DNA of 64,000 nt from Octopus vulgaris (taxonomy: Eukaryota): NCBI GenBank assembly GCA_951406725.2, contig OX597820.1, positions 50,964,001-51,028,000 on the forward strand, given 5' to 3'. A program made the position numbers and the translations under genes. Positions 39,410 through 42,600 of this stretch are shown piece after piece (position 1 is the stretch's first letter; each line of letters starts with the position of its first letter). The notes under the pieces are model-generated. The model had not been told where the DNA came from, ran no database searches, and saw only the letters and a program-made list of their open reading frames with translations.

Positions 39410-39562
39410 TGTAGTAGTGTTGACAGTCATGCTTCACAATTTTTGACTGTATATATATATATGTATATATATATATATATATATATATATATATATATAT
39501 ATATATATATATATATATATATATATATATATATATATATATATATTATATATTATAGAAGG

Positions 39563-39613
39563 AGCTTCTACAGGACTAGAAGTGTTTCATTCAAAAGAAA
39601 TCATCAGGAAGCT
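39563..39613 (-). ncRNA. Type I hammerhead motif, minus-strand twin
   Basis: Reverse complement of the plus copy; stem III carries one C-C mismatch (CAC instead of CAG). Confidence 0.65.
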
Positions 39614-39660
39614 TCCTGATGATTTCTTTTGAATGAAACAGTTCTAGTCCTGTAGAAGCT
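39610..39660 (+). ncRNA. Type I hammerhead ribozyme motif
   Basis: agcttc(39610-15)-CTGATGA(39616-22)-t-ttc-tttt-gaa-t-GAAA(39635-38)-cag-ttctagtc-ctg-TA(39653-54)-gaagct(39655-60); all three stems pair. Confidence 0.8.
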
Positions 39661-42600
39661 CCTTCTATAAAATAAATTAATTTACTCTGCTATGTATTGA
39701 GTACCTTATTTACTGTGGTTAACCCCGACTCAACCCGGGACCTACATATATATATATATATATATATATATATATATATATATATATATATAAAGAAATG
39801 CACAGAATTTATATATTTGAAATATATAATACTACGACAGTTGATCGGTTTGGCGTTTCGGTAATCATAATATTTAGATTAGTGAAAATATTCACTTAAG
39901 ATGTTTTTAGTCCCTGTTGCTTGTATGGACGGTTGTTTATAAATGAATCACCATGTAGAAAACATATGAGGACAAGTAATTTATGATTGTTATGATTCTA
40001 GAGAGGGGAGGTAAATGCACATGGTGAGAGTAAATTTATTTAAACTTATGGGTTTAAATAGTAAGATAAAATATGGTAATGGCATCATGGGTAAAAATGT
40101 AAAAAAAAATCAATATTATTTAAGCGTTGTTACTCTGGTGTCGTTGGTATTTATGAATAAATATATGTTTTTATTTAATTGTTTTTGTATATTGTTCCTC
40201 CCACTGGTATATGGGAAAAACCGTAAAGTTTGGTTGGCGAATTCCTGTATTTCTCTCTGTATGTTCACTCAACAGTATTTGTATACACCTTAAGAAATGG
40301 AGTTGTTCCTCACGCAGCGTAGTTGTCCGTCTAAGTGACATCCTTGTTTGACCTTTATAGTTGTGTCCCCAACCTGAAAAAGTTATCTAAATTATGCACA
40401 AATTGTAAATCTCTGTTTTGCTTGAAATGGAATTCCGAACCTTCATATGTGTGTGTGCGTGCGTGTTCGTGTGTGTGCGCGTGTGCGTATGTGTGTGTGT
40501 GTCTGTCTGTGTGTATGTGTGTGTGTGTGTGTACTTTACATATATTTAATTTATATAGAACATCTTTGTTACAGCAATCTGATTTAAGTTTAATGCTATA
40601 AAGAATATACCGTTAATATATTTTTCCGCAATGATCGTGGCTAACAGGAGATTATGTGGGAAGAATCGATATTTGAGGGTTAACCTTTCTGCTTGCAGTG
40701 GTTAAGAATCAGCATTTTGCAACGTAAATTTATTAGCAATCTCGGCCATTTACGATCTGTTCATCTACTTTCACAAAGTAGTGGGAAAATTATTGTTTAT
40801 ATAATTAATAATTTGCGCATTTACATATGTGTTGCGCACGTGTCTTTTCATTTGTGCTTCGGATATCTGATTTCATTACCAATAATGCTTTAATTCATAG
40901 ATGTTCAAGTTTCACCATGTTGACAAGAGTTATATGTATACTGCAGGATGTGTAAAATTTATGTGAAAATTGATGTGCAAACTAAGAGCTGAGCTAGTGA
41001 TTTTAGTGTTGTTGTCACTGTGATGCCGAGTATGCTTTCTAATATGCTGAAAATTTACATGGTTGCTGTTTCAAGTAAATAGCTCACTTCCAGAATAGAC
41101 TTGGGAGCTTAATGTGGTATACTGCTTCTTTTACATTAAGTTTTAGGAATAATATAGGGAAATAATTGGACCCTGATACATAATGATTTCTCTGAAGGCA
41201 CTATGTATAGGAGATGTATTAATAGTCGTTCCGTGAAGGTCAGGTATATTTGCAGTGCCTAATTTGAGAAAAGATAATCTTGAGTAGCTCGGGAAAATGA
41301 TCTATTCCGGAACTATGCGATGTCAATGATGCGAATCGGAGGTTATTTTAAGCGAACGCACTAAATAATGATCGACAAGAAAATGTACATCGGTAATTGT
41401 AACTGAGACTTCAACAAGTCAGGTTGTAAACACGTGTCATAATTTAGGGACGCTGACTAAATAAATACAATGCAATTAGCAAAAAAAACACACACTCATA
41501 TACCTCTTCCAGCATCAAATTACCAAGAGATCAAATCTGTTCAGACGAATTTCTGAACAAAAGTAAGACAGCAACTGAAAAAATGTAAACGTCTTGTTGG
41601 CTTGTATGTCTAAACTACGATACTCTAATGCAGACTTCAATTTGCCAACTCAAACTATTTTAATACTAGCACAACACATAGAAAACGGGTCAAAATAACA
41701 CCTCAAATATAAACTCTCAACTGATATGGACACATCTATGTATGCATGCAATGTTCATTTTTTTGTATTAAATGTAGATTTCTATGCTTTATAGCGACTT
41801 CATATGCTAACTACAATAAGCAGCTTGCGTTTTCAAACTGTTACGAACCACACTGGCGGAAAAATATTCCTTTAAAAATAATTTTTGTGAAACAATATCA
41901 TAGTAGCGTTAGACATTTTGTAAATAATCTCATGATTGACAAGAAGGATGTTGTCGGCTTCATCTAAGCTGCATCCGCCTATCTACTTACCAGCATGACG
42001 CATAAAGGACGTTGTTTTAAGTAAGTTATATGAAATATTAATGATTTCAAGACAACTGGGTTTTTAATTTGCTAAACTTACTAACTTTCGAACTGTTCAG
42101 TATTTCAATGTCATCGTCGGTCTGTTTGTTTGTCTGTCGCTCTCTATCTCTCTTTTCTCTCGCTCACTCTGTCTATCTCTCTGTCTGACTACTGTTTGCC
42201 TGTCAATGTGTCTATCTACATAGGAATCTGAGTAACAGTGTTTGTGAAGCCCTGTACATCAGGTACAGGTCATTACCAACGAATGAAAATTACGTAGACA
42301 CACGAGCGATAAGTACAGGACAAAGAAGCCCTAAAATATACAATAAGAACAGGATATTACCAAAAGTAAAAAATACGTAAACACATGAGAGACAAGCGCA
42401 GGAGAAATTACCAAAAAAATGTAAACCCCCCCCCATATATATATATGCATATACATACATATAAATATTCATATATATGCGCTTACACACGTACCCGCAT
42501 ACACGTTCATACACATACACACACGTTTTATACACTTAAATATATATATATATATATATATATATAGTCCACATGTATGTGACTCAAATTGTCATTCTCT

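Follow-up and report, generated by a model that had tools for sequence, protein, structure and literature searches.

Two overlapping hammerhead motifs in a palindrome

The window, by which we mean the whole 64,000-nucleotide stretch of Octopus vulgaris DNA that was analysed, holds a 118-bp palindrome whose arms (39553–39611 and 39612–39670) pair over 59 bp with a sole mismatch (G39582/G39641), just as an initial annotation of the sequence had described it. The axis falls within an AAGCTT hexamer (39609–39614). Positions in the element are numbered from the first base of hammerhead stem I (+1 = 39610), which puts the predicted cut after +45 (39654). The parts of the plus-strand hammerhead lie where that annotation had placed them; each strand does carry a motif, the two overlapping by the AGCT at 39610–39613; the palindrome has no ORF; and it sits within (TA)n, with arrays at 39450–39557 and 39746–39792 on its two sides. 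The features are:

39610–39615/39655–39660, plus strand: hammerhead stem I
39616–39622, plus strand: hammerhead CUGAUGA
39624–39626/39631–39633, plus strand: hammerhead stem II
39635–39638, plus strand: hammerhead GAAA
39639–39641/39650–39652, plus strand: hammerhead stem III
ending at 39654, plus strand: hammerhead GUA triplet
39610–39660, plus strand: type I hammerhead, the same as the pLTR motif of the ORF-bearing copy L149; predicted cut after 39654
39563–39613, minus strand: type I hammerhead whose stem III suffers from the mismatch at 39582; its predicted cut falls between 39569 and 39568
39553–39613, minus strand: tail-less (short) arm, pLTR +1 to +61
39610–39613, no strand: AGCT common to both arms, the putative 4-bp annealing site of two cDNA 3′ ends
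39661–39749, plus strand: rest of the pLTR and the 72-nt tail (+69 to +140 = 39678–39749)
39450–39552, no strand: left (TA)n target array, the array itself reaching 39557
39746–39792, no strand: right (AT)n target array, whose first four bases also match the element (putative priming microhomology)

The conserved core and three stems of a type I hammerhead are present on both strands; in the minus copy the mismatch sets C opposite C in stem III, and the predicted fold energy is −3.4 kcal/mol versus −7.3 kcal/mol for the plus motif. An Rfam search gave no hammerhead match at E<=10, the top match being MIR9486, a generic hairpin (79.9 bits, gathering 100). The U bases beside stem II (U10.1–U11.1), which the initial annotation took as grounds for doubting activity, are not read here as damage because Hydra-clade hammerheads often have them (File S2 of PMC8557442, cited in part). 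The AAGCTT hexamer is itself a product of the join: the natural upstream sequence of the window subfamily reads TAGCTT, and AAGCTT occurs naturally at this point in one other subfamily. (TA)n on either side masks any target-site duplication. In the low-complexity-filtered ORFs of the 64-kb window we recognised no host gene.

Other retroelement remains lie in the window, namely a decayed Hydra-type reverse transcriptase (RT) fragment of another family (52348–53043, plus strand; 42% identity to the ORF of L074) and a GIY-YIG-like fragment (60202–60498, minus strand) that by eye is like the Neptune-type endonuclease in L034. Three further frames (44074–44766, plus strand; 8422–8799 and 16876–17349, minus strand) resemble C-terminal pieces of proteins with a LINE RT and a restriction-like endonuclease. 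The stretch 12596–12973 matches a flank of L149 at 74%, and is another common repeat, unrelated to the palindrome.

The ORF-bearing partner

An autonomous Penelope partner, as the initial annotation had anticipated, is found in ORF-bearing copies with an RT plus a GIY-YIG-type domain at the C terminus that carry the same terminal repeat (pLTR). The plus arm of the window is identical, with zero differences, to +1 to +136 of one such copy, L149 (individual loci are given L numbers), and RT and endonuclease frames lie between inverted pairs spaced by several kb. A protein search of the genome, in which 150 matches of 6,463 candidates were scored, had one 722-aa open frame among the close ones. 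Tandem copies have the order pLTR, tail, short 5′ UTR, ORF; in them the tail region seen in the window arm runs on into the 5′ UTR and then the ORF start.

The partner has a single ORF of about 710–720 aa, in which YRDD and VY..YIG motifs were identified by inspection; the domain assignment is by these motifs, since Pfam detected neither the RT nor the GIY-YIG domain in the three pieces of the window-family protein scanned. The protein shows DKT (changed from DKG), RWR (RWK in a second family, B, described below), a CxCX5C linker, and CxxC and CxH around E and N, and it lacks CCHH. The change of DKG to DKT, RWK, CxCX5C, absence of CCHH, and CxxC/CxH around E and N are features of the Hydra clade (PMC8557442, cited in part). 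With the Hydra clade, of which Hydra-1_Obim and Penelope-13_HM are examples (Craig et al. 2021, PMC8557442, cited in part), the window family shares an RT with C-terminal endonuclease, DKT, CxCX5C, the lack of CCHH, a (TA)n target and a canonical type I pLTR hammerhead with U bases at stem II. Stem II is kept across subfamilies while loop 2 varies, and the RT3–RT4 region resembles, by eye only, two Hydra rows of Fig. S1 (PMC8557442, cited in part). From these sequence traits we classify the partner, a young element, as a Hydra-clade Penelope-like element (PLE), and the window locus is an ordinary dead insertion of this known clade. The family is distinct from Hydra-1_Obim, which has a different hammerhead, and two window-family protein motifs have 0 matches in the supplement of PMC8557442.

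In length the element exceeds the <3 kb typical of the Hydra clade, a non-strict tendency (PMC8557442, cited in part): L035 measures about 3.9 kb even without the ORF start, because its 3′ UTR is rich in microsatellite. The 3′ UTRs of L031, L033 and L035 contain 1.5–2 kb of TA/CA-rich microsatellite, and the element would therefore spread its own target. At L034 (3402–5724, minus strand) a second PLE (Pfam RVT_1, E 2.6e-10; GIY-YIG, E 3e-6) lies between inverted arms of the window family.

Copies and junctions across the genome

Copies were counted by exact-pattern matching. A 25-nt core has 1,666 exact genome matches (823+843) against 0 for the reversed control, so that the repeat is not due to chance. 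Head-to-head joins with a gap of 0–11 nt gave 418+420 pattern matches, i.e., about 419 loci, and the exact 36-bp AAGCTT centre is found at 174 loci; both figures are minima that cover one group of subfamilies, and the two patterns differ slightly in length. The inversion points are therefore non-random, as had been supposed, AAGCTT being the commonest join; the axis does not always lie there, this site being favoured rather than fixed. The exact AAGCTT join occurs in four subfamily types (24 loci). Copies differ by about 1% substitutions, which agrees with the young age proposed earlier. L179 and L180 are the same insertion with the same flank 8 kb apart, a local duplication, and one was left out of the counts. 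Six loci (L084, L109, L183, L219, L249, L276) have short templated inserts at the join, copied from the partner arm. Such inserts are reminiscent of polymerase theta end joining. At L222/L223 (around 1450–1550), arms ending at the predicted cut enclose a foreign 33-nt near-palindrome.

Perfect palindromes belong to a known class of library and assembly artefacts. As an account of the present ones, a fold-back artefact is scarcely credible given hundreds of loci, asymmetric ends, the strict tail rule described below and a one-base difference between the arms at the window locus; contigs of runs X1, X2 and X3 also cross the axis, none of them tied to the window locus.

The initial annotation regarded the palindrome as a non-autonomous fold-back unit that spreads itself and toggles between hammerhead and hairpin. 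This has in its favour the identical 36-bp centre at 174 loci, the youth of the copies, and contigs of two runs guessed to be RNA, not taken here as a sign of expression, that carry the junction as loose ends. We nevertheless hold it to be very improbable. Most short junctions differ from one another, the exact join recurs in different subfamily types, and the unit contains no promoter, a TATA-like box (see below) lying upstream of the join. The conformational switch is likewise unsupported on energy: the predicted read-through hairpin has −107.8 kcal/mol versus −38.8 kcal/mol with the hammerhead forced, a preference of 69 kcal/mol, and since the upstream arm would be made first in either direction, the hammerhead motif would be trapped in read-through RNA. 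An A>G excess, the mark of ADAR, was not seen in the genomic copies (190 arms and 98 tails). Read-through palindrome transcripts are a plausible candidate substrate of ADAR or Dicer.

Right-hand ends follow a one-tail rule

Exact tail ends pass into (TA)n in 1,864 cases as against 11 into the 5′ UTR. Tailed arms end at +140 in 79/96 and short arms at +68 in 51/91, both sites being A/T stretches able to pair with a nicked (TA)n strand. The 121 loci examined include 71 short head-to-head pairs, and every one of these consists of one tailed and one short arm. Five of the six long pairs keep to the same rule; the sixth (L031) has tail sequence on both arms, one of them interrupted by other DNA. 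The definition of an inverted PLE insertion, a 5′-truncated inverted 5′ copy with a tail at one end only, describes all 71 short pairs, and such one-sided tails are standard for PLEs (PMC8557442, cited in part).

The Poseidon PLE PAc nicks and extends both strands in vitro at AT-rich targets, and its RT starts at two internal sites, which set the bounds of the tail (Frangieh et al. 2024, PMC11167929, cited in part). By analogy, the one-tail rule matches two internal RT starts combined with two-strand priming. In the same system truncation of the template 5′ end shortens the product; inverted products and the RNA start are not addressed in the cited part of that study, and the PAc tail lies in the ORF, whereas the 72-nt tail of the window family lies in the 5′ UTR (PMC11167929, cited in part).

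Left-hand ends form a wall at +1

We scored 99 arms bearing the core, from 64 loci in their order along C1: the left-hand end lies at +1 in 36, at +2 to +7 in 44, at −1 to −6 in 0 and further upstream in 19; L094 is scored short in this count and long by eye. Because this sample requires the core, we added a tail-selected one (55 insertions, 88 ends), in which 31 ends lie at −1 to +3, 0 at −2 to −8 and 17 further upstream. Annealing at AGCT with trimming could mimic such a wall in symmetric joins; asymmetric joins show it too.

A box resembling TATAAAT/CATAAAT starts exactly at −29 in 10/10 long copies of several subfamilies, despite differing spacer sequence. Of 34 cases whose base before +1 is not provided by the partner arm, 19 have G there (A 9, C 4, T 2; p 1e-4 versus 0.25), a count that leaves out nine stem-I joins selected by the search for +46 starts. 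L069 and L247 read (TA)n-G-AGCTTC without any partner arm. An untemplated 5′ G has been read as a copy of the cap in L1 (PMC9341517). We infer that the element RNA has a capped start at +1/+2. The TATA-less internal promoter of D. virilis Penelope (PMC2377424) counts against this reading, and the extra G is the same base that a one-nucleotide snap-back of stem I would add. In D. virilis the mapped RNA starts are situated upstream of the hammerhead. An intramolecular snap-back was rejected, since there is no ladder of longer extensions and the nine stem-I joins are between two molecules. In the freely accessible literature searched, we found no description of a wall, an extra G, a cut-site peak, strong-stop or twin priming in PLEs.

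A second family bears on the same question. Family B is Hydra-type, 47% identical, and more abundant, a 25-mer of it having 4,545 matches. A three-repeat tandem of this family with 726-aa ORFs lies at L284:1–9501, with the same palindromes and the axis at CTAG. In 100 family B arms, 32 ends lie at −19 to −13 of the core and 0 at −20 to −38, a softer wall, the commonest axis being the CTAG just inside it; 30/31 short pairs have one tail. The sequence at this wall, CCATTCT, is initiator-like, and no clear TATA box was seen in the wall region. The 100 arms gave no cut-site peak, and extra-G counts are no clean test in this family. By pairing read by eye, stem I has its outer end at this wall, the computed fold closing one base further in. 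The palindrome and wall pattern is thus not peculiar to one family, and family B does not settle the start-site reading.

The same twin priming could run instead into a processed or structural end, the RNA being trimmed to the base of stem I or the RT falling off there. This fits as well, given that stem I has its outer end at the wall in each family, and agrees with the lack of a clear TATA box in family B, with an intron of D. virilis, one end of which is placed at the 5′ end of helix I (PMC4209133, cited in part), and with +1/+2 being AG after a pyrimidine-rich run. We judge it unlikely in view of the fixed position of the box, the extra G at the wall and the roughly one arm in five that reads through the site. 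Use of the wall as a splice acceptor in particular was rejected: splicing would remove the AG that the arms retain, and there is no upstream exon sequence common to the junctions.

Possible traces of cleavage at +46

Besides the main wall at +1, the end positions show a second, smaller peak at the predicted cut. Arms starting exactly at +46 after a non-natural base make up 19 of the first 30 of 96 matches (17 insertions), which extrapolates to about 61, or about 32 without the stem-I joins; 9 of these 19 are explicable by annealing of the 6-bp stem I without cleavage. The control positions, examined whole, gave 4/29 at +40 and 7/30 at +43, a portion of which are internal deletions. In L197/L198 and L222/L223 each of the two arms ends at +46.

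Deletions at +45/+46 occur in 16/184 arms versus 1 at G+38, while G+49 has 9 deletions and 10 substitutions; the G changes at +46 and +49 are arm-specific. The +45/+46 and G+49 changes are commoner in paired arms (30/142) than in unpaired ones (3/45), so that a sequencing error linked to the hairpin is possible, and the G changes at +46 and +49 may reflect either an RT jump or such error. Indels were not found in the run contigs at a 10% floor, which lies above the 5–9% rates seen in the arms.

Judged indirectly, from the copy ends, the hammerhead of the element likely cuts in the living animal. Evidence for hammerhead cleavage in vivo is said to be lacking (PMC4209133 and PMC11167929, both cited in part), and it is such cutting that the window-family copy ends suggest. 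For PAc, RNA-seq gave no ends at the cut site, and in vitro the element did not require cleavage (PMC11167929, cited in part).

A run-off model for the palindromes

We consider it probable that the palindrome is a pair of head-to-head pLTR stubs of a Hydra-clade PLE in (TA)n, likely formed by two cDNA run-offs at a probably capped RNA 5′ end and joined at AGCT. Transcription would start from the TATA-like box at −29 at the first base of stem I, which would make the hammerhead the 5′ end of the mRNA. The enzyme would nick both (TA)n strands, each nick priming on the sense RNA at +68 or +140, for which there is the in vitro precedent given above. On the promoter-proximal repeat both cDNAs would reach the RNA end after 60–140 nt, often gaining a C opposite the cap; microhomology, with AGCT as the easiest site, would then let their 3′ ends anneal, and each would copy the other. 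For long copies the source would be the downstream repeat or template jumps, and a minority of templates would already be cut by the ribozyme. The palindrome product, having no promoter, would be a dead end.

In LTR elements, internal priming near the RNA 5′ end gives the short run-off cDNA known as minus-strand strong-stop DNA. The primer here would be nicked target DNA and not a tRNA. In L1 twin priming, two nicks prime two cDNAs that are joined by microhomology. Unlike those of L1, both cDNAs here would copy the same region, giving a duplication and not an inversion of upstream sequence.

At subfamily sites the two arms match in 47/47 and 56/60 comparisons (shuffle maxima 43 and 46), and so they derive from a single source. 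Variants at +43 to +52 occur in 27/71 pairs, and in 26 of these 27 the arms differ. These data bear on the proposal, made for rotifer Penelopes on the basis of palindromes where inverted copies meet (Arkhipova et al. 2013, PMC3846280, cited in part), of self-priming fold-back on one antisense template, the first arm then being copied as DNA into the second. That arms always share subfamily sites is what it would lead one to expect, and the Adineta vaga elements also have head-to-head inverted pLTRs, a tail at one end, junction palindromes, microhomology joins and, in the pLTR, a TATA plus Inr (PMC3846280, cited in part). We still think it improbable for the window family. A perfect join with no loop would be hard to make in cis, and the ends map to the sense-RNA landmarks +1 and +46. 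The cut-site variants are arm-specific, foreign or (TA)n inserts separate the arms (L197/L198, L222/L223), and all nine stem-I joins have different end types on the two arms, which makes them joins between two molecules. The arm-specific variants may stem from later mutation or long-read error; together with the foreign inserts they fit two separate copying events better than antisense self-priming. The A. vaga palindromes are few, whereas those of the window family number hundreds and point to two sense-templated cDNAs (PMC3846280, cited in part, for the former).

Same-orientation joins are found at L101/L144, L125 and L206, where a copy that has got as far as +1/+2 or +46 resumes further downstream in the element; we read them as template jumps that build tandems. 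The run-off reading of the palindromes can be widened, tentatively, to a strong-stop step in PLE replication: the pLTR promoter would start the RNA at the first base of the hammerhead, and two primings just downstream, one for each target strand, would run off at the cap and then have to jump, a jump to another RNA yielding a tandem, the active form, and one to the sister cDNA an inversion; the hammerhead would also cut in vivo, with cut RNA serving as template too. We find this wider scheme possible, though rather less likely to hold than its palindrome part. If true, pLTRs, tails, tandems and inversions would all follow from a single rule, and the RNA start of each family could be read off its palindrome axes using only DNA.

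Relation to known elements

Several of the ingredients are already published: inverted PLE insertions, hammerhead pairs on opposite strands, junction palindromes, and a Hydra element bearing motifs on both strands, Penelope-13_HM being listed with an inverted 5′ copy (PMC8557442, cited in part). Neither a wall of ends at the hammerhead nor mass-produced minimal palindromes are described in the cited part of that account of the Hydra clade (PMC8557442), which names the origin of tandem and inverted PLE structures as open. The minimal PLE hammerheads of Cervera and de la Pena (2014, PMC4209133, cited in part) are also of type I in pLTRs, with an extra base before stem II and a palindromic loop 3; the dual motifs of Schistosoma lie on opposite strands 100–700 bp apart (PMC4209133, cited in part), whereas those of the window overlap. 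Animal non-LTR retrozymes (Li, Clavereau, Pollet 2026, 10.64898/2026.07.22.740005; PMC7229834; both cited in part) are likewise non-coding, PLE-derived and equipped with a type I hammerhead. They are tandem direct units (10.64898/2026.07.22.740005, cited in part), whereas the window holds an inverted pair of pLTR stubs without a unit of its own; identity with them was rejected, because there are not >=2 tandem direct units and the sequence is the pLTR of a coding element.

The minimal insertions amount to a large natural sample of reaction products, whose stereotyped ends give testable coordinates: RNA start +1, RT starts +68 and +140, cut +45/+46, join AGCT. The copy ends argue for a sense template against the published idea of antisense self-priming. 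For the host, the hundreds of perfect 60-bp hairpins are potential sources of dsRNA.
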